From Promethearchaeota archaeon (lineage in GTDB: Archaea; Asgardarchaeota; Lokiarchaeia; Sigyniarchaeales; SOKP01): a stretch of 29,554 nucleotides of DNA. Position numbers and translations under genes: made by a program. The notes under the pieces were generated by a model. That model ran no database searches and was not told the DNA's origin. It saw only the letters and a program-made list of their open reading frames with translations. The stretch lies in the NCBI GenBank assembly GCA_048938445.1, contig JBHLME010000041.1, positions 4,704 through 34,257 on the forward strand, written 5' to 3'. Positions 2,683 to 12,021 of this stretch are shown piece by piece (positions within the stretch are counted from its first letter, which is position 1; every line of letters begins with the position of its first letter).

Positions 2683-3186
2683 CTAAATATAATGATGCTG
2701 TTCTCCACCACAATTTTCACAAAATTTTGCAGTTGCGTTGATCTTATACCCGCATAATCCACAAAACTTAGTTTTAATTGGTTCGACGTGATTCTTTTCT
2801 TTTTCCACCTTTTCTTGAACGAAGGGTAATTTAAAGGGTAATTTAATCACCGGGACAAACTGACCACATTGAGGACAATTAATTTTTCCTTTTTTACCTT
2901 GCTTGAAAGTTTTTCGTGGACCAAAACCAGACACTTGTCCCATGCAATCTGCACACCACACGCTCTTACAATTTTTACATGAAAAAAAGTAATTCTGCCA
3001 CGCTTCTCCCCAATAGGTCTTATCGTTGGTATTTCGATTGCATAACACGCAGTAATGATCGGATAGAGGCCTTCTTGGTATAATCGACCTCTCGTTAATA
3101 TTTTCACCCTTTTTAATAAGTACTTCATCAAATTCTTCACTATCACTTGGAAGCGATTTTTTATTTTTTACTTGTTCATTCAACAT
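2683..3186 (-). CDS. Zinc-finger protein: C4C4 RING/FYVE-like finger plus C-terminal zinc ribbon
   Basis: C46-x2-C-x20-C-x2-C-x4-C-x2-C-x22-C-x2-C107, then FCGLCG...FCENCG (C142/145/156/159). Confidence 0.75.
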   Translation of the reverse strand: MLNEQVKNKKSLPSDSEEFDEVLIKKGENINERSIIPRRPLSDHYCVLCNRNTNDKTYWGEAWQNYFFSCKNCKSVWCADCMGQVSGFGPRKTFKQGKKGKINCPQCGQFVPVIKLPFKLPFVQEKVEKEKNHVEPIKTKFCGLCGYKINATAKFCENCGGEQHHYI

Positions 3187-3359: not shown

Positions 3360-4337
3360 TTATTTATCAGTTGAAAAATGTTTAAGAAATTGATCTTTTT
3401 TTTCTTTTGACATGCGAATGGTATTGATAAGGGAGGGATCTATACGAAATGCGGAGAGATTCTGGTAAAATTTTATGGGGAGCTTGTTTTGAACACACCA
3501 TTTAGCAAGTTCGACATCATCCTTTAATATTTCAAAATGTTCATAAAATTCATAAGAAGCATTATTTTGAAACCCCCATTTTGCTAACTCTGGAGCTTCT
3601 TTCAACTTATTGAAGTTATCATAGAAAACTTTATGAACTCGATTTTGAAAGGCCCACTTAGCTAACTCCGGATTCTCCTTAAATTTATCGAAATTATTAA
3701 AAAAATCTACATGACTACCCCAATACCACACGGGCGCAGAGTTTCGAAGAACCCATTTTGTAAGCTTTATATTTTTCATTAATTTATCAATATTGTTAAA
3801 AAAAGCTGGAGGGAGATCGTAATAAATGCCTTGAAGTATTATCTTCACAGTTGGAGATTTTACTGAATTAGAAAGGAGTTTAATTTCTTCAAATGAAAAA
3901 TTGTCAAGATACCCTTCTTTATGCAAGTAAATCACCACGTTATCATTGCCCTCTTCCAGCCGATATATTATCTCTTCTTTAAAGACTCTCTTGGCAACGG
4001 GATCCCCTATTTCCGTCAATTTTTTTAGCAAGGGAAATGCCAAATTTCTGTGAAGGAGTCGAGTGTCATAATCATTTTCAACCCAGGCGTGTATGTTCGA
4101 ACAATGTCCCCAAAATTCTTGTTCAGGACTTATGTCTAATTCCTTGTACGTGTTAGATCGATCGTTTTCCTCCATCTCATCTATAGATTGAATGTCATCA
4201 AATTCGTGAACTTCATCAATGGGAAAATTAAAAGCAAGATACTTGCATTGCTGGAATAAATGTTCATCTAAATAGATATTAGTATTAATCCCTTCCAACT
4301 TGAGCGTGATATAAGCGTTAATCTTGAATTCTTTCAT
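3360..4337 (-). CDS. Lokiarchaeal-type conserved N-terminal domain protein (family usually LRR-linked) with C-terminal ~26-aa helical repeats
   Basis: 'EFKINAYITLKLE...FQQCKYL...EQEFWGHCSNIHAWVENDYDTRLLHRNLAFPLLKKLTEIGDPVAKRVFKEEI' matches a domain I recall as expanded in Lokiarchaeia. The C-terminal repeats are directly visible. Confidence 0.75.
   Translation of the reverse strand: MKEFKINAYITLKLEGINTNIYLDEHLFQQCKYLAFNFPIDEVHEFDDIQSIDEMEENDRSNTYKELDISPEQEFWGHCSNIHAWVENDYDTRLLHRNLAFPLLKKLTEIGDPVAKRVFKEEIIYRLEEGNDNVVIYLHKEGYLDNFSFEEIKLLSNSVKSPTVKIILQGIYYDLPPAFFNNIDKLMKNIKLTKWVLRNSAPVWYWGSHVDFFNNFDKFKENPELAKWAFQNRVHKVFYDNFNKLKEAPELAKWGFQNNASYEFYEHFEILKDDVELAKWCVQNKLPIKFYQNLSAFRIDPSLINTIRMSKEKKDQFLKHFSTDK
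3429..3818 (-). repeat. Intragenic tandem protein repeat, ~26 aa x ~4.5 (consensus F(Y/F)xNFxKLKExPELAKWxxQN)
   Basis: Conserved Trp at aa 195, 228, 254, 280 and unit-initial Phe at aa 179, 212, 238, 264, 290. Confidence 0.85.
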
Positions 4338-4776: not shown

Positions 4777-7539
4777 TTATTTCCTTCCTAATTTGATAAT
4801 CATTACAATTACAGTACTTATAAGCCCTATAATTATAACAATGAAAATTATATCAGCTATATCTAATCCATTTAAATTATTATTATTTGAACTTATATTG
4901 AAATCAATTTTAATGCTCGTCTGTGGATCAGTAATAATGAATGTTTCGGTTTTATCTTGCGTTCCGATTATTATTGTATCACCATAATTGAAATTCAAGA
5001 TCGACAAATCAAACTCGTAATGATTATCCATAACATCTATTATTATAGATTCACCATTAGTGATATCTATAACCATTAAATTATATACTCCTTGTACATC
5101 ACCAAATATATAGAACGCTGGAGATGAACTTGCGAATAGTTGCACTTCTTTCACGTGCCACCATTGATTTTGACTGTTATAAGTTCCCGTTATTTTGATG
5201 AACCTTACCTTGGAATTGATCACGTCCCACTGCCACGATTTATGCTCTCCTGAGGTTTTATCCACGACAAGCGTCCAAGTCGTATTGTCCGTGGAAATTT
5301 CAATTTTATATTGATAATATCGATTATCCCCGTCCCAAAAATGGGTTTTAATTGCCCTAATATCATAATTACATGGTAATTCAATGTAAAGTGAATTACC
5401 AAGATCATTTGAAGCATATGTAGTGTCATCATCATCGACCATCTTACCGGCATCAGAGCTTCCATGTGCAATAGAATTAATTATAGGAGTACGGTAAAAT
5501 ACGAGTTCTTGTTCGTATGTGTTTTCGAGACCCCACAAATCCGTTGTTTCTATACGAATCGCATGAGTTCCAATATTATAATCAAACGTGTTTATTTTAA
5601 GTTCGGAAATCGTATCAGAATTGACAAGCCATTCCTTAAAACACAAATCTTCTACATGTTCTCCATCAAGATACCATGAAGCTCTCGTAATTAATTGGGC
5701 GTTTGAAATGCATTGTCCGAAATAAAGTGTCCTTGAAACGCTTGAAGTAGGTGTGGTATATCCAGATATTATAATGTCGCTCGTCGTGGGAATGATATCC
5801 AGATCTTCATTAAAATAATCACATATTCCTTTAAAAATGGCTAGAGCAATCTTGCTTCGAAGATTGATATTTGAGATTAAATTAAAATCTTCCTGATTCG
5901 AAAGGAATACAGGATATACCATTACAGAAGGCATGTTCGTGTTAGAAAGTTCATCAAAATGCCTACCAAGCGTGGTATAATCCCCTTTAGCACCTCTATT
6001 CGTTGTTTCTAAATCTGAAACTATTCGAGTTTGGATGTTGCTTGCAAGGTTAAGTCCATTGACAGAGTATGAAACATCACTTTCAGCCCAATAATAAGTC
6101 TCAGAACCTCTTGTTGCTGTTGATGAATCAAGATTATTACATTGAAGGCTCACAAAAATATCAGCATTATTATCATTTGCAGTAGCGCACCTTTGATCGA
6201 TTGAGACTGCTATATCAGAATCTCTTGTCATTAAAACTGAAGCACCTGCGTATAACAACATTTCTTTCAAGCGTAAACCAACATCAAGATTGAAATCTTC
6301 TTCATTTGGAAATGCAGGACCATCAATCCCGAGAACTCCTGTTTCTGCACCACCATCTCCAGGATCTATGCATATTATCTTTCCTGTCAATGAATTTGAT
6401 ATTTCAGAAAATTTGGAAATAATTAAAGACCAAATATCCGATGTTTCATAACCAAGAGCCCAAAATCCAACTCCTCGAAGATTAATTAAATTAACGTAAT
6501 CAAATTTTAATCCTAAAGATTCTGAATCTTCATACCAACATTGATGCCATTCAGATCCATCTTGATATCGATACCATGGTGTATGTGAGTTAGAATCCCA
6601 AATTCTCCCATATGTTTGAGCATTAATAATAGCATTTCTCAATAAAACACTTACACCAGAACCTATAGTTGAGGCTCCCGCTATACTTGAAGAACAAGGC
6701 CAATCATATCCATAGAAAGGAACTCCTAAGATAATTTGCGAATTTAAGTAATAATTTGTCAATCTATTCACAGAATCAACAATATCAAATTGATTTGGAT
6801 CATCATAAGGAGACACTGCTCCTGTAGTTGGACCACTTCTCCAATGGTAATCATAACCCATGAGGAATACCGCATCAGTATATTGAGATAAATAATTATT
6901 ACGATATATGCTTTCAACACTTCCTGAAACACAAAAAGATATATGATTATTAGGATTAGCAGTTTTGAGAGTATTAAATAGAATTTCCATTAATTGTTCA
7001 AATAATAATAAATTTGAACCTCCTGTAAGGGAATTAGTTGGATTCGGAAATTCAAAGTCCAAATTTACCCCATCAACATTATATGTTTCTAAAACATCTA
7101 AAACATTATTAGCAAAATCATTTTTATGATATGCAAATATACTGTCTTGAGTATTTTGATCAAAACAAGTGATACATATTGTTATTTTAACACTATTTTG
7201 TTGAGCATTTGTTTTTACCGTATTAAATTGGGCAATTCCTGGTGGTGATAACGTTCCATCACTATTTGCGCCCCAAGAAAAATATGCGATATATGTCAGG
7301 GCATCCCAATTTGGTTCATAGGAAGAAGGATTGGTCCAATAAGGCCAAAATCCATAAGTTAGTTTATTTCCCTCTAAATTTGATCTCTTCGGAGTCAAGT
7401 TATCAATATCATTGTTGTTTTCATAAAATTCAGAGATTATAGGATAATTTGATAATGATGAAATATATGTTATTAAAATACACGCAATTAAAACAATACA
7501 AATTTTTCCAGAGCTCTTTTTATTAATCAAATTTATCAC
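4777..7539 (-). CDS. Membrane-anchored GH18 glycoside hydrolase + inactive Amidase_3 domain + Ig-like region + F5/8 type C (discoidin) domain + C-terminal TM anchor
   Basis: N-terminal hydrophobic segment. GH18 motifs DGVNLDFE (D156/N159/D161/E163), LMGYDY, LGVPFYGYDW, GVGFWALG. Amidase-fold domain from aa ~385 with DPGDGG/SLQCN/MVYPVF. Discoidin region ~5131-5480. C-terminal IIFIVIIIGLISTVIVMII-KLGRK. The true start may be TTG at 7530, since the called GTG lies inside an AGGTGAT SD. Confidence 0.88.
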   Translation of the reverse strand: MINLINKKSSGKICIVLIACILITYISSLSNYPIISEFYENNNDIDNLTPKRSNLEGNKLTYGFWPYWTNPSSYEPNWDALTYIAYFSWGANSDGTLSPPGIAQFNTVKTNAQQNSVKITICITCFDQNTQDSIFAYHKNDFANNVLDVLETYNVDGVNLDFEFPNPTNSLTGGSNLLLFEQLMEILFNTLKTANPNNHISFCVSGSVESIYRNNYLSQYTDAVFLMGYDYHWRSGPTTGAVSPYDDPNQFDIVDSVNRLTNYYLNSQIILGVPFYGYDWPCSSSIAGASTIGSGVSVLLRNAIINAQTYGRIWDSNSHTPWYRYQDGSEWHQCWYEDSESLGLKFDYVNLINLRGVGFWALGYETSDIWSLIISKFSEISNSLTGKIICIDPGDGGAETGVLGIDGPAFPNEEDFNLDVGLRLKEMLLYAGASVLMTRDSDIAVSIDQRCATANDNNADIFVSLQCNNLDSSTATRGSETYYWAESDVSYSVNGLNLASNIQTRIVSDLETTNRGAKGDYTTLGRHFDELSNTNMPSVMVYPVFLSNQEDFNLISNINLRSKIALAIFKGICDYFNEDLDIIPTTSDIIISGYTTPTSSVSRTLYFGQCISNAQLITRASWYLDGEHVEDLCFKEWLVNSDTISELKINTFDYNIGTHAIRIETTDLWGLENTYEQELVFYRTPIINSIAHGSSDAGKMVDDDDTTYASNDLGNSLYIELPCNYDIRAIKTHFWDGDNRYYQYKIEISTDNTTWTLVVDKTSGEHKSWQWDVINSKVRFIKITGTYNSQNQWWHVKEVQLFASSSPAFYIFGDVQGVYNLMVIDITNGESIIIDVMDNHYEFDLSILNFNYGDTIIIGTQDKTETFIITDPQTSIKIDFNISSNNNNLNGLDIADIIFIVIIIGLISTVIVMIIKLGRK
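4915..6370. repeat. Copy 1 of ~1.45 kb duplicated module (pseudo-amidase/Ig-like/discoidin)
   Basis: Aligns to 8134-9589 at a constant offset of 3219 bp; 5153-5266 is identical to 8372-8485 (114 bp). Boundaries are approximate. Confidence 0.95.
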
Positions 7540-7594
7540 CTATATTATTTGTTTTTCTCAAAGGTTTTCAAATTAAATGAAAAATGATTTTAAT

Positions 7595-7604
7595 AAAAAA
7601 AAAA
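7595..7604 (-). terminator. Oligo-T (T10) tract, candidate archaeal terminator/attenuator between amidase and GH18 genes
   Basis: A10 on the + strand just downstream of the stop at 7612. AT-rich background lowers significance. Confidence 0.35.
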
Positions 7605-7611
7605 TATATAT

Positions 7612-10377
7612 TTAGTATTCAAACTTACATTTCGTACACACTCTTTTTGACTCATAAACTTTTTTAGGATAATAACTTATAACTTGATTTTTATCGACGA
7701 TTAATTTAATATCTCTTCCTTTAGCGTTACATCTTGGACATTGGAGGTTCTGGTTTAATCCAGAATATATATTTAAATAATTGTTAGCTGGATTTTGATT
7801 AGAAACATTTAATGATGAGTAATCATTATTTTTAATATTTTCTGTAATTTTTTCCGTATTTTGATAAATGTTTGTTTGTTGATTTTTTTGGGTATTTAAT
7901 GAACTTATCAACCTTGAAGTAGAATTATCTTTACGATAAATCTTATTCTCTTTTAATTTTGAACTGACATCTTTAGAAGATTTTTTCTTAGTATAAGCAA
8001 TACCCAATGTTAAAATAACTACTGATAAACCTACAATTATTAGAATATATATCAAATATTGTATATAATCTATAGGAATATCCGGATTTTCTGGTTCTGA
8101 TGAATCACTGTTTATGATTAGATCGATTTTTTTGCTCGTTTGTGGATCAATGACAATGAATGTTTCGGTTATATCTTGAAAAATGATTTGTATCGTATCA
8201 CCATAATTGAAATTCAAGGTCGATAAATCAAATTCATACCATTCCTCTATAACTTCAATCATCATTGATTGACCATTTGTAAGATCTGTGAACGTAATAT
8301 TATCCCCTCCTTGTACATCACCATATACATAGAACGCTGGAGAAGTTCGTGCGAATAATTGAACCTCTTTTACGTGCCACCATTGATTTTGACTGTTATA
8401 AGTTCCCGTTATTTTGATGAACCTTACCTTGGAATTGATCACGTCCCACTGCCACGATTTATGCTCTCCTGAGGTTTTATCCACGGCAAGCGTCCATGTC
8501 GTATTGTCCGTGGAAGTTTCAATTTTATATTGATAATATCGATTATCCCCGTCCCAAAAATGGATCTTAATTGCCCAAATATCATAATTACATGGTAATT
8601 CAATGTAAAGTGAACTACCAAGATCATTTGAAGCATATGTAGTGTCATCATCATCGACCATCTTACCGGTATCAGAGCTTCCATGTACTTTAGAATCAAT
8701 TATGGGAGTACGGTAAAATGCGAGCTCTTGTTCGTATGTGTTTTCGAGATCCCACAAATCCGTTGTTTCTATACGAATGGAATGAGTTCCAATATTATAA
8801 TCAAACGTGTTTATATTAAGTTCGGAAATCGTATCAGAATTGACAAACCATTCTTTAAAACACAAATCTTCTACATGTTCTCCATCAAGATACCATGAGG
8901 CTCTCGTAATTAATTGGGCGTTTGAAATGCATTGTCCGAAATAAAGTGTCCTTGAAACGCTTGAAGTAGGTGTGGTGTATCCAGATATTATAACGTCACT
9001 CGTCGAGGGAATGATATCCAGATCCTCATTAAAATAATCACAGATCCCTTTAAAAATGGCTAGAGCAATCTTGCTTCGAAGATTGGGATTTGAAATTAAA
9101 TTATAATCTTCCTGATTTGAAAGGAAAACAGGATATACCATTACAGAAGGCATGTTCGTGTTAGAAAGCTCATCGAAATGCCTATCAAGCGTGGGATAAT
9201 CCCCTTTAGCTCCCCTGTTCGTTGTTCCTAAATCTGACACTATTCGAGTTTGGATGCTACTTGCAAGGTTAAGTCCATTGACAGAGTATGAAACATCACT
9301 TTCAGCCCAATAATAAGTCTCAGAACCTCTCGTTGCCGTTGATGAATCAAGATTATTACATTGAAAGCTCACAAAAATATCTGCATCATTATTATTAGCA
9401 GTAGCACACCTTTGATCGATTGAGACGGTTATATCAGAATCTCTTGTCATTATAACCGTGCCACCTGCGTATAACAACATTTCTTTCAATCGTAAACCAA
9501 CATCAAGATTGAAATCTTCTTCATTTGGAAACGCAGGACCATCAATCCCGAGAACACCCATATCAGTACCACCATTTCCGGGATCAATGCAAATTCTTTT
9601 ATCTTCTATTCCATCAGAAGGATCTGAAGGAAAAACTGGTGTAACTCCAAAATAACTACAAATCCCTCTATAAATACCTACTGCAGCTTTATAACGGTTG
9701 TTAGCGATAGAAATGTAGTTAAAATCATCTTGATTTGACATGAATACACATTCGGGTAATGCTGCGGGCATATCAGTGTTACTAAGAACATATAAATGAT
9801 AGGTTAAATAAGGATAATCCATTTTTATTCCCCTATCGATCCTCCCCATCTCTAATATTAATCCTTTTTGGATACCATCAGCTAATCTTCTTCCATTTAC
9901 TGAATATACAGAACTACTTTCACCCCAATAGAGGGTTTCAGTACCTTTTGCAGCAGAATTAGAATTAGCATTATTATGAACACTAACAAAAATGTCTGCA
10001 CTATTGCTATTTGCGATACTGCATCTAGATGCAAGTGATACAGTTGTATCACTAGTTCTCGTCATGATGACCGTGGCTCCAGCATATATTAATAGATCTC
10101 TTAGGTGTAAAGAAATATCAAGATTGATATGTTTTTCATCAGGATATCCTGATCCATCAATTCCTGTTGTTCCTGATTCAGTACCTCCATGGCCTGGATC
10201 AACACAAATTTTTTTACCTGATAAAATGGCAGATGATTTTAATTCTTCATTTCGAGAATCTTTACTTTTATCAACTAATAATCCTGTATTTAATGTGTTT
10301 ATAGATATGAAAATAAGAAAATTTGTAGTAATTATACAAATGATTATTATTACAATCGAAATCTTTTTTGATTTCAT
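7612..10377 (-). CDS. Membrane-anchored N-acetylmuramoyl-L-alanine amidase (Amidase_3, intact) + inactive Amidase_3 + Ig-like + discoidin + TM + cytoplasmic C4 zinc finger
   Basis: Domain 1 has all four canonical residues: H63 (DPGHGG), E81 (DEKHINL), H134 (SVHNNA), E209 (LPECVF). Domain 2 has N268/E286/Q339/Y415. N-terminal TM/signal, TM at ~7992-8067, Lys/Asn-rich linker, terminal CPRC...CTKC. Confidence 0.9.
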   Translation of the reverse strand: MKSKKISIVIIIICIITTNFLIFISINTLNTGLLVDKSKDSRNEELKSSAILSGKKICVDPGHGGTESGTTGIDGSGYPDEKHINLDISLHLRDLLIYAGATVIMTRTSDTTVSLASRCSIANSNSADIFVSVHNNANSNSAAKGTETLYWGESSSVYSVNGRRLADGIQKGLILEMGRIDRGIKMDYPYLTYHLYVLSNTDMPAALPECVFMSNQDDFNYISIANNRYKAAVGIYRGICSYFGVTPVFPSDPSDGIEDKRICIDPGNGGTDMGVLGIDGPAFPNEEDFNLDVGLRLKEMLLYAGGTVIMTRDSDITVSIDQRCATANNNDADIFVSFQCNNLDSSTATRGSETYYWAESDVSYSVNGLNLASSIQTRIVSDLGTTNRGAKGDYPTLDRHFDELSNTNMPSVMVYPVFLSNQEDYNLISNPNLRSKIALAIFKGICDYFNEDLDIIPSTSDVIISGYTTPTSSVSRTLYFGQCISNAQLITRASWYLDGEHVEDLCFKEWFVNSDTISELNINTFDYNIGTHSIRIETTDLWDLENTYEQELAFYRTPIIDSKVHGSSDTGKMVDDDDTTYASNDLGSSLYIELPCNYDIWAIKIHFWDGDNRYYQYKIETSTDNTTWTLAVDKTSGEHKSWQWDVINSKVRFIKITGTYNSQNQWWHVKEVQLFARTSPAFYVYGDVQGGDNITFTDLTNGQSMMIEVIEEWYEFDLSTLNFNYGDTIQIIFQDITETFIVIDPQTSKKIDLIINSDSSEPENPDIPIDYIQYLIYILIIVGLSVVILTLGIAYTKKKSSKDVSSKLKENKIYRKDNSTSRLISSLNTQKNQQTNIYQNTEKITENIKNNDYSSLNVSNQNPANNYLNIYSGLNQNLQCPRCNAKGRDIKLIVDKNQVISYYPKKVYESKRVCTKCKFEY
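8134..9589. repeat. Copy 2 of ~1.45 kb duplicated module
   Basis: Colinear with 4915-6370 (offset 3219 bp), with scattered substitutions. Boundaries are approximate. Confidence 0.95.
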
Positions 10378-10875: not shown

Positions 10876-12021
10876 ATGACAAGTCAAAAATTCCTTCAAG
10901 TATTTATTGTTTTGAGAACAATAATTAATGTTTATTTTTTTATTATTGTACCTATGAATAATGAAAATGATCTTTATTTTTCAGTCTATAATAATGATTC
11001 TAATGGCTATTCCTCTTACCGGGAAGCAATTGAAAGTCGTGGTTACGAAGTAATGAGCTTGCAATCAAGTTTAAGCGCAATTAATAATATAGATAAATCA
11101 ATATGCTTGGTTTTGCTCGGACCTAACCAATTTTATGATCCAATATTTGATATTCCTTTCTTTATAGATTTTTTAAGAGATGAAAATTATGATAATTCAA
11201 TATTAATTTGTCATGAATACGGTTGTACAAATACATTATTATATGAAATTATGTTAGCAAGCATTCGGAACCTTTGGAGTGATCCTGATCCAGAAATTTT
11301 TCCTTTAGCAATTTTTGCAGATGGTCTCTTAAGAGATAACTTCTCATGTTTACAAAATGATGTTGGATTAGTAGATCCCACGTATCCAATAGTGAAAATA
11401 ACTGAAAGCCATCCCACAACAACAGGGATAGATGAAGTTGTTCTTTCTCAAGCAACGGCTGCAGCAGGAGGAAGAGTTCTTTATGAAGCACTGGGTTGGG
11501 ATGTAATTGGAGAAACTACACCATTTTATAGCTGGGTTGATAAAAATGGTGATGGAGAATTTAAAACATTACCAAATAGCACGATTCCTGCTGATGATTA
11601 TCTTGACTTGTCTTATTTAATTGGTATTGTAGATGGACTATTAGGAGGAGGTATTAATACTAGTATTTTAGAAAGATTCCCACTTGGTGGCGCAGGTTTT
11701 GACCCTATGGTATTTCTGGCTAAGGAATTGGATAATAATAGGGTATATATAACTTCAGATGCGAGTTGTTTCTCAAACGATTTAATAGATGAATGTGATA
11801 ATTTACAATTTGGACTCAATATTATTGATTGGCTTACTTACAATGGTATTGATGACCCAGATGATTGGATTATTGTTTTTGATGAAACGCATATTCGTTC
11901 AGAAGATTCACCAGAATTAACCTATATAGGAATTTTAATAATTTTTATTGTAATGAATTTAATTTTAGTCATTCTTATTGTAATAATATTAAAGGTAATA
12001 ATTCACCCTCGATTACCTTAA
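10876..12021 (+). CDS. DUF4350-like membrane-anchored surface protein
   Basis: N- and C-terminal TM segments. 'FSVYNNDSNGYSSY', 'LVLLGPNQFY', 'RVYITSDASCFSNDLI...NLQFGLNIIDWL' and 'IVFDETH' fit the DUF4350/GATase-like fold pattern. Confidence 0.65.
   Translation: MTSQKFLQVFIVLRTIINVYFFIIVPMNNENDLYFSVYNNDSNGYSSYREAIESRGYEVMSLQSSLSAINNIDKSICLVLLGPNQFYDPIFDIPFFIDFLRDENYDNSILICHEYGCTNTLLYEIMLASIRNLWSDPDPEIFPLAIFADGLLRDNFSCLQNDVGLVDPTYPIVKITESHPTTTGIDEVVLSQATAAAGGRVLYEALGWDVIGETTPFYSWVDKNGDGEFKTLPNSTIPADDYLDLSYLIGIVDGLLGGGINTSILERFPLGGAGFDPMVFLAKELDNNRVYITSDASCFSNDLIDECDNLQFGLNIIDWLTYNGIDDPDDWIIVFDETHIRSEDSPELTYIGILIIFIVMNLILVILIVIILKVIIHPRLP

Follow-up and report, generated by a model that had tools for sequence, protein, structure and literature searches.

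The stretch of DNA analysed here, called the window, comprises 29,554 nucleotides of a Promethearchaeota archaeon genome (assembly GCA_048938445.1, contig JBHLME010000041.1, positions 4,704 to 34,257 of the forward strand). Its gene P0001 encodes a protein with two Amidase_3 domains that is predicted to span the membrane once near its C-terminus and to end, inside the cell, in a zinc ribbon with four cysteines (C4), which unrelated cytosolic proteins of the same lineage carry as well. P0001 and the tandem paralogue P0002 were divided into the following features (TM, transmembrane; pLDDT, predicted local distance difference test score; pI, isoelectric point):

7612–10377 (−): whole gene P0001, 921 residues plus stop codon; double Amidase_3 protein, predicted to be anchored in the membrane with its zinc-ribbon tail in the cytoplasm
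10291–10362 (−): N-terminal hydrophobic segment, residues ~6–29, after MKSKK; Kyte–Doolittle mean over 19 residues 2.9, preceding charge +3
9658–10209 (−): Amidase_3 domain 1, residues 57–240 (PF01520); H/E/H/E intact in the alignment with the PDB amidases Cwp6, CwlV and others
9013–9600 (−): Amidase_3-like domain 2, residues ~260–455, degenerate; second PF01520 stretch, with N/E/Q/Y
8365–8679 (−): F5/8 type C (discoidin-like) domain, residues 567–671; weak match, PF00754 at 26.6 bits, below the cut-off of 28.2
7993–8058 (−): C-terminal TM helix YLIYILIIVGLSVVILTLGIAY, residues 774–795; hydropathy 2.9, flanking charges −4/+4, helix pLDDT 85–87
7750–7992 (−): predicted cytoplasmic linker, residues 796–876, TKKK followed by N/S/K/Q-rich low complexity, as judged by composition; pI 9.7, pLDDT <50
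7615–7749 (−): C4 zinc ribbon (the "Zn domain" of the Loki 2DGel family), residues 877–921; Cys 880, 883, 914 and 917
4777–7539 (−): tandem paralogue P0002, with GH18, degenerate Amidase_3, discoidin, TM helix and a KLGRK stub

The TM helix, TKKK, a Lys/Asn/Gln-rich linker and a C4 finger had been reported in the first-pass annotation for the range 7612–8070, and all of these strings were recovered there; the range corresponds to the stop codon plus residues 770–921 of P0001. Downstream of TKKK the linker comprises 79 residues (N16, S12, K10, Q6), and the C-terminal end reads CPRC-x28-CTKC-KFEY over the final 42 residues. At the other end of the protein, the segment of ~24 hydrophobic residues is predicted to be a signal peptide or a signal anchor. 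The G+C content at third codon positions was 0.09–0.22 over TM helix, linker and finger vs 0.19–0.32 in the ectodomain, a gap which may come from amino-acid composition or from separate origins of the two parts.

Amidase ectodomain and reality of the fusion

In Pfam, PF01520 matched P0001 with 292.8 bits (gathering score 27; E 1.2e-87) in two stretches. Four positions were compared, which we take to be the zinc ligands H, E and H and the catalytic E, with roles as in the work on CwlV and AmiC. Domain 1 holds H, E, H and E at these positions, aligning with Cwp6 and 4rn7; domain 2 holds N, E, Q and Y, three of the four metal or catalytic positions being lost, which the first-pass annotation had overlooked. 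The sole Amidase_3 domain of the GH18 paralogue P0002 (5800–6390, −) holds D, E, Q and Y, and its DGxNxDxE motif is kept. Because of the residues at the four positions, P0001 was read as a probable combination of one active amidase and one binding module, and P0002 as a putative GH18 enzyme with a dead amidase-like module; domain 2 of P0001 and the amidase domain of P0002 are thus probably pseudo-enzyme modules that bind the wall. The discoidin-like region, below the cut-off in P0001, was matched by PF00754 with 34.1 bits in the 85%-identical paralogue.

With the bacterial Amidase_3 amidases (CwlD/CwlV, AmiA/B/C, Cwp6 of C. difficile) P0001 shares the catalytic domain PF01520 and H/E/H/E in domain 1. 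It differs from them in remaining under the NCBIfam equivalog cut-offs (CwlD, 189.6 vs 221.55), in its archaeal host, which has no peptidoglycan, in the extra degenerate domain copy, and in a C-terminal TM anchor with a predicted cytoplasmic tail instead of cell-wall-binding repeats. Bacteria-killing peptidoglycan hydrolases of archaea have been demonstrated in halophiles, whose supernatants contain the activity (Strock et al. 2025, PLoS Biol). Like P0001, these are archaeal enzymes against a polymer found only in bacteria, suggesting antagonism or scavenging; unlike them, P0001 is predicted to stay bound to the cell and to have a tag in the cytoplasm. The main text of that paper was searched for Asgard, transmembrane, membrane anchoring and GH18, none of which is mentioned, and a literature search found no paper naming both Lokiarchae* and N-acetylmuramoyl-L-alanine amidase.

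A search with residues 480–921 returned, besides the neighbouring paralogue, one protein at 100% query coverage and 44% identity. This protein, P0004 (1244 residues), comprises GH18, two Amidase_3 domains, a discoidin region, a TM helix, RKK, an N-rich linker and CPRC...CRNCGFED; its genome belongs to a different genus within the same family (G020, genus g4), and it is the only full-length orthologue of P0001. The two tails are collinear (156 vs 154 residues, 32% identity; finger 47%), and P0004 keeps all 15 conserved finger columns. Its amidase domain 1 is intact, and its domain 2 holds D, E, H and E. Among the 41 related genomes, ectodomain homologues were found in G000, G020 and G004 only; the copy in G004 is an orthologue of the stub-ended P0002, and its contig starts inside the gene, so that a tailed copy may exist there as well. 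A word-indexed search with residues 760–921 yielded only P0001 itself among 335 candidates.

The open frame across the junction was also present in independent data. A 421-base contig from a sequencing run of another study covers 7716–8136 with 0 differences, spanning part of the finger, the whole linker, the TM helix and 26 ectodomain codons. No RNA data set was listed as containing the region.

P0001 and P0002 lie on the same strand, 72 nucleotides apart, and are 81–85% identical over ~560 residues. Within this tandem pair (4777–10377, −) the N-terminal enzymes are swapped and the C-termini differ, P0002 ending in ...MIIKLGRK, as had been noted before for the GH18 partner. In the related genus a single fused gene comprises GH18, two Amidase_3 domains, TM helix and tail (L021, 394–4134). 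The pair looks like a recent duplication with domain partition. A relic of the tail behind P0002 was considered and rejected: the 439 nucleotides downstream gave no profile match, and DNA similarity was at chance level.

The C-terminal zinc ribbon and its other carriers

The finger of P0001 was scored with a leave-one-out profile built from 12 other fingers of the genome. Over 29,633 six-frame open reading frames (ORFs), the P0001 ORF reached 47.7 bits (E 1.7e-12). No ORF from outside the family scored above 14.1 bits, and shuffling the finger 1000 times gave no more than 11.3 bits. When the P0001 finger was included in the profile, 16 six-frame ORFs of the genome scored 50–80 bits and all others ≤14 bits. 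The residues C, C, D, Y, C and C are invariant in all 16 paralogues.

For the distribution beyond this genome, a database of 1.84 billion proteins was searched with the finger profile, with representatives at 50% identity; 530 of these matched at E ≤ 1e-3. Among clusters of 106–2000 residues, 690 matched at E ≤ 1e-5. The details of carriers given here refer to the best 150 of the 530 representatives and to the best 120 of the 690 longer clusters. None of the 150 representatives departs from the four Cys or the Asp, and P, I, E, P, Y, K and K are conserved at ≥90%. The loop Tyr (position 34 of the 47-residue piece), invariant in the 16 paralogues, is kept in 98% of the representatives and is present in P0001. 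The finger lies at most 5 residues from the C-terminus in 142 of 152 proteins examined; in P0001 it extends to the last residue.

The first-pass annotation had pointed to a similar C-terminal finger in many Lokiarchaeal proteins, which the 16 ORFs and 530 representatives bear out, and the listing of architectures it had suggested for Asgard proteins returned gelsolin, Ras, TPR and coiled-coil carriers together with stand-alone forms. At Pfam E ≤ 1e-6, the families on the 150 representatives were Ras, gelsolin, TPR, GFO_IDH_MocA (a cytosolic NAD-binding fold), generic zinc-ribbon or zinc-finger families and coiled-coil families, and no secreted-enzyme domain was among them. Of the 120 longer carriers, 96 have gelsolin repeats and none has PF01520 or PF00704; their source labels are Promethearchaeota or Lokiarchaeota, besides a few other Asgard names. 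All 16 copies in the genome of P0001 are C-terminal. No hydrophobic 19-residue stretch above 1.6 occurs in 13 of the 15 other carriers in this genome, and the remaining two each show a single weak one (1.61 and 1.85); strong hydrophobic segments (2.9) occur in P0001 only. One carrier is a two-domain gelsolin followed by a linker and the finger (PF00626, E 2e-32); several others are coiled coils.

All 41 genomes examined from the order contained the finger, in 4–16 copies each, the highest number being that of the genome studied here. Within the sample of the phylum it was found in 102 of 201 genomes; outside the order these were 58 of 157, with exactly one copy each. In five of the latter (G075, G064, G046, G041 and G051; loci L015–L019) the single copy is a stand-alone protein of 48–53 residues, and these five genes have no shared neighbours or synteny and no ubiquitin or ESCRT (endosomal sorting complexes required for transport) neighbours. 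The stand-alone single-copy ribbon is probably the ancestral form, recruited and multiplied later as a C-terminal tag in the order. Across 15 regions (14 carrier loci and the window), no neighbour family recurred in at least three.

The family profile matched PDB entry 7whg_G, "Lokiarchaeota gelsolin (2DGel)", at residues 287–333 with E 1.4e-18. By this profile match the P0001 finger is the already published "Zn domain" of the Loki 2DGel gelsolin, which has no Pfam family; its earlier publication had escaped the first-pass annotation. In the parts of Akil et al. (2022, Commun Biol 5:890, PMC9433394) consulted here, the Zn domain is described as part of 2DGels and of multi-domain Loki proteins unrelated to them, as exclusively C-terminal, and as forming small proteins of its own; its loop tyrosine is conserved, its zinc binding was modelled, and homologues outside Loki were not consistently found. 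Passages of a 2025 preprint on Asgard crawling/motility call the 2DGel extensions "of unknown function". The Zn domain of Loki2DGel / MKD1-2DGel (PDB 7WHG, in which the domain is unresolved) resembles the P0001 finger in its (CxxC)2 pattern, loop Tyr, C-terminal position and long preceding linker. It differs in being attached to a soluble actin regulator, whereas that of P0001 follows the TM helix of an extracellular enzyme, and in its sequence, P0001 having no RR before Cys1 and 3 of 15 conserved columns changed. No functional study of the Zn domain after 2022 was found in the literature searched, and in the same literature the Zn domain as the cytoplasmic tail of a membrane-spanning, wall-directed enzyme appears to be undescribed.

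The fold was examined with an AlphaFold2 model of the finger (alignment of 16 sequences), which has a pLDDT of 84.9 and consists of a long beta-hairpin with two long strands. Binding of one zinc ion is inferred from it. Foldseek against the PDB returned nothing at E ≤ 1e-3, with Rpp21, Rpb9 and Elf1 as weak neighbours at E 1–5; in the VIA fold search the best Z was 3.9 (NrdR), followed by TFIIS, Rpb9, TFS4 and Elf1 at Z 2.5–3.4. As modelled, the finger is a generic zinc ribbon, and therefore no function follows from its fold. No Pfam or NCBIfam family exceeded its own cut-off on the fingers, barring one stand-alone paralogue, on which the MJ0042-type CXXC model (TIGR02098) scored 23.0 vs a cut-off of 20.9 over 15 residues only. 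The ESM Atlas returned, for the stand-alone finger, only unnamed clusters at 0.90–0.91, which are uninformative.

Some further arrangements of finger genes were observed. In the genome of P0001, two stand-alone ribbon genes stand in tandem on contig C121 (L007, 5001–5177 (+) and 5401–5568 (+)). Convergent pairs of finger genes occur in relatives, e.g. carriers of 419 and 150–174 residues at G006:C46, G110:C190 and G169:C141. The carriers at L009 (5001–6095, +), L004 (5001–5780, +) and L013 (4740–5537, +) have N-terminal domains without a Pfam family, those at L004 and L013 resembling paralogues of each other.

Membrane topology and proposed docking of the tail

The charge around the C-terminal TM helix of P0001 is −4 in the 15 residues before it and +4 in the 15 after it; for P0004 the values are −2 and +6. 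By the positive-inside rule, and since the finger is otherwise carried by soluble proteins whose domains are cytosolic (gelsolin, Ras-like GTPase, TPR, coiled coils), the tail of P0001 is most probably cytoplasmic, as had been proposed from the first inspection. The same side is suggested by the ectodomain, whose modules are typically secreted and whose substrate, peptidoglycan, lies outside the cell. Nothing in the analysis predicts the tail outside, the four Cys are invariant, and the tail recurs in the sole full-length orthologue. In the model of the tail (alignment of only 2 sequences) the helix has pLDDT 85–87, residues 805–876 are below 50, and the ribbon is folded, which suggests a disordered linker; helix, disordered stretch and folded ribbon would together amount to the design of a tether. 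A C-terminal sorting signal was rejected for P0001: no NCBIfam CTERM model of the archaeosortase type (Loki-CTERM, PGF-CTERM) matched P0001, P0002 or P0004 at E ≤ 1, and 126 residues follow the TM helix vs the short basic end of such signals.

An N-terminal hydrophobic segment is present in 5 of the 150 finger representatives. Two of these proteins, P0104 and P0032, combine an N-terminal membrane anchor, a long linker and the finger, and their charges keep the finger inside. As these rare carriers join anchor and finger by long linkers, the target of the finger would not be the membrane surface itself. As side observations, P0141 (96 residues) has a lipobox-like LIGC, and P0042 (156 residues) has a strongly basic N-terminus and a weak TM segment.

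From these data the following role is proposed. P0001 would be a surface hydrolase of bacterial peptidoglycan held in the archaeal membrane, with the active Amidase_3, the degenerate Amidase_3-like and the discoidin-like domains facing outward and both protein ends in the cytoplasm. After the TM helix, a flexible linker of ~80 residues would present the 45-residue C4 ribbon, which in this order seems to serve as a tag at the C-termini of cytoplasmic proteins that are otherwise unrelated (2DGel gelsolin, coiled coils, Ras-like GTPase). The tail would dock to the same cytoplasmic partner as the other carriers, and the enzyme would thereby be placed, concentrated or kept at particular sites of the cell surface, next to coiled-coil proteins and regulators of actin. 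The simplest reading is one specific partner shared by the carriers, because D, Y and KK are conserved at positions without a structural role and because unrelated cytosolic proteins share the finger. Docking of the surface enzyme to a shared partner through its tail, which would position or cluster it, was judged to have about an even chance of being right. The data establish the gene with its TM helix, linker and finger, the membership in the finger family, the cytosolic nature of the proteins that share the finger, and the conservation in an orthologue. We infer the topology, the zinc binding and the docking function, and likewise any link to protrusions or the cytoskeleton. Of the two ideas in the first-pass annotation, inward signalling of bacterial contact and positioning by a cytoplasmic scaffold, the second is the better one, as a tentative interpretation; no F-actin binding is reported for the gelsolin copy in the text consulted.

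A more specific form of the docking role would make P0001 a transmembrane coupler, which grips and cuts peptidoglycan outside and joins a hub of gelsolin, coiled-coil and Ras-like GTPase proteins inside (at the actin cortex or the ubiquitin/ESCRT machinery). This was considered rather doubtful. If it held, wall-degrading activity could be concentrated at contact sites or protrusions or loaded into vesicles, and P0001 would provide a primitive link of the adhesion or uptake type between a bacterial partner and the archaeal cytoskeleton.

Several observations weigh against docking. No partner of the finger is known, and the Zn domain of Loki2DGel did not associate with F-actin, the actin used being eukaryotic (Akil et al. 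2022, in the parts consulted). The P0001 topology is predicted from hydropathy and charge, and a cytoplasmic location is not universal in the family, since in one or two of the 150 representatives (P0141, P0042) N-terminal signals would place the finger outside. Only 2 of 41 related genomes have the tailed, membrane-spanning architecture. A stub of 5 residues terminates P0002 and its orthologue in G004, and with them half of the ectodomain relatives known, so the tail is dispensable in the paralogue; the rarity and this dispensability had not been noticed in the first-pass annotation. Finally, of the 15 finger columns with ≥80% conservation, P0001 matches 12 and differs in three (G→N, E→L, K→S; the near-invariant residues compared were the G after Cys2, E, and the KK after Y), and its finger lacks the usual RR before Cys1. 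Because of these changes it may bind more weakly or be drifting.

Some of these points would also fit an accessory or decaying appendage, acquired by fusion with the 3' end of a finger-bearing gene and adding little, the TM helix alone serving as anchor. The paralogue and its orthologue evidently work with the stub, the finger departs from its family at the three columns, and the architecture is confined to the two relatives; moreover, the finger family is expanding in this genome (16 copies, the most among the 41 relatives), which makes chance fusions more likely. Opposed to this, the tail has been kept in two genera with the four Cys, the Asp and the Tyr intact, all 15 columns are conserved in the orthologue, and the open frame is intact in the assembly of the other study. 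A mere appendage is held to be unlikely.

The receptor-like function put forward in the first-pass annotation found no support, and P0001 would not be a conventional signal transducer. In such a function, by analogy with PGRP-LC, binding or cleavage of peptidoglycan would alter the tail (by clustering or release) and the ribbon would inform a cytoplasmic effector. The order of domains would suit this, with a peptidoglycan-recognising part outside, one TM helix and a conserved cytoplasmic domain, and the degenerate domain 2 resembles the modules of non-catalytic peptidoglycan sensors. As a functional analogy, animal PGRP-LC-type receptors and integrin-type couplers have, like P0001, a wall-recognising part derived from an amidase, a single TM segment and a partner-recruiting tail; PGRP-LC-type receptors differ from it in their Amidase_2 fold, which is unrelated to Amidase_3, in orientation and in tail motifs. 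However, the tail has no output domain recognised by Pfam or NCBIfam (kinase, helix-turn-helix, adaptor motif) and shows no sign of signal transfer. The gelsolin, the coiled coils and the stand-alone finger proteins of 50 residues are unlike signalling chains, no neighbouring regulator is conserved across the 15 regions, and a disordered linker of ~80 residues would pass on a conformational change poorly. A signalling receptor was rated rather improbable.

As a further alternative, the finger could be a sorting tag that recognises the Asgard ubiquitin-like system or ESCRT and directs its carriers to budding membranes or vesicles. In the 201-genome sample, all 16 finger-bearing families also have a PF00240 gene and all 5 families without ubiquitin lack the finger, as do 6 ubiquitin-positive families. 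Gelsolin, which served as a control profile, does not track the finger (family f5: finger in 4 of 4 genomes, gelsolin in 0 of 4; family f9: 0 of 43 and 43 of 43). The tallies lead weakly towards ubiquitin/ESCRT and away from gelsolin as the ancestral context, yet the co-occurrence is no more than nested, and shared ancestry confounds it. In eukaryotes, zinc fingers that bind ubiquitin at the C-termini of varied proteins are a known pattern. On the other side, no NZF, UBZ, A20 or ZnF-UBP was among the Pfam matches at E ≤ 1, where short fingers are easily missed; 28 residues separate the Cys pairs vs ~10 in NZF fingers; and at the five stand-alone loci ubiquitin and ESCRT neighbours were lacking. 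A complex prediction for the finger with the ubiquitin-like protein of the genome (84 residues, ending in ...QAGGI) scored 0.02, which is evidence neither way. Such a tag is regarded as very doubtful.

Extremely improbable is a nucleic-acid-binding ribbon, by which the tail would tether DNA or RNA to the membrane or act on it after intramembrane proteolysis: the weak structural neighbours are all zinc ribbons of nucleic-acid machinery (NrdR, TFIIS, Rpb9, TFS4, Elf1, Rpp21) and the finger domain is basic (pI 9.5), but the fold matches all lack significance and stem from the zinc-ribbon fold in general, carriers such as gelsolin and a Ras-like GTPase fit badly with such a role, and no context of the site-2-protease type was seen.

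The Zn domain, a tag specific to this lineage, is found on the Asgard actin regulator that has been studied best, and a membrane-spanning carrier offers a new handle on its purpose. P0001 indicates that the tag would also link the cytoplasm to an enzyme outside the cell that is directed against bacteria. Should the partner common to the carriers be cytoskeletal or ESCRT-related, this would bear on how Asgard archaea handle their bacterial neighbours, which is central to models of eukaryogenesis.

Neighbouring genes in the window

Within a few kilobases of the amidase pair, the window contains a Ras-family small GTPase (1977–2510, +; PF00071, E 2e-41) and a DUF6935 protein (1135–1587, +). A protein of 167 residues (2683–3186, −) gave matches below the cut-offs to Zn_Ribbon_1 (21.7 vs 25 bits) and DZR (20.3 vs 27.3 bits). 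Downstream of the GH18 gene, an ORF of 325 residues (3360–4337, −) without a Pfam match has an "...ELAKW..." repeat at intervals of ~28 residues. A divergent ORF of 381 residues (10876–12021, +), with hydrophobic N- and C-terminal segments and a weak DUF4350 match, probably encodes another surface protein.

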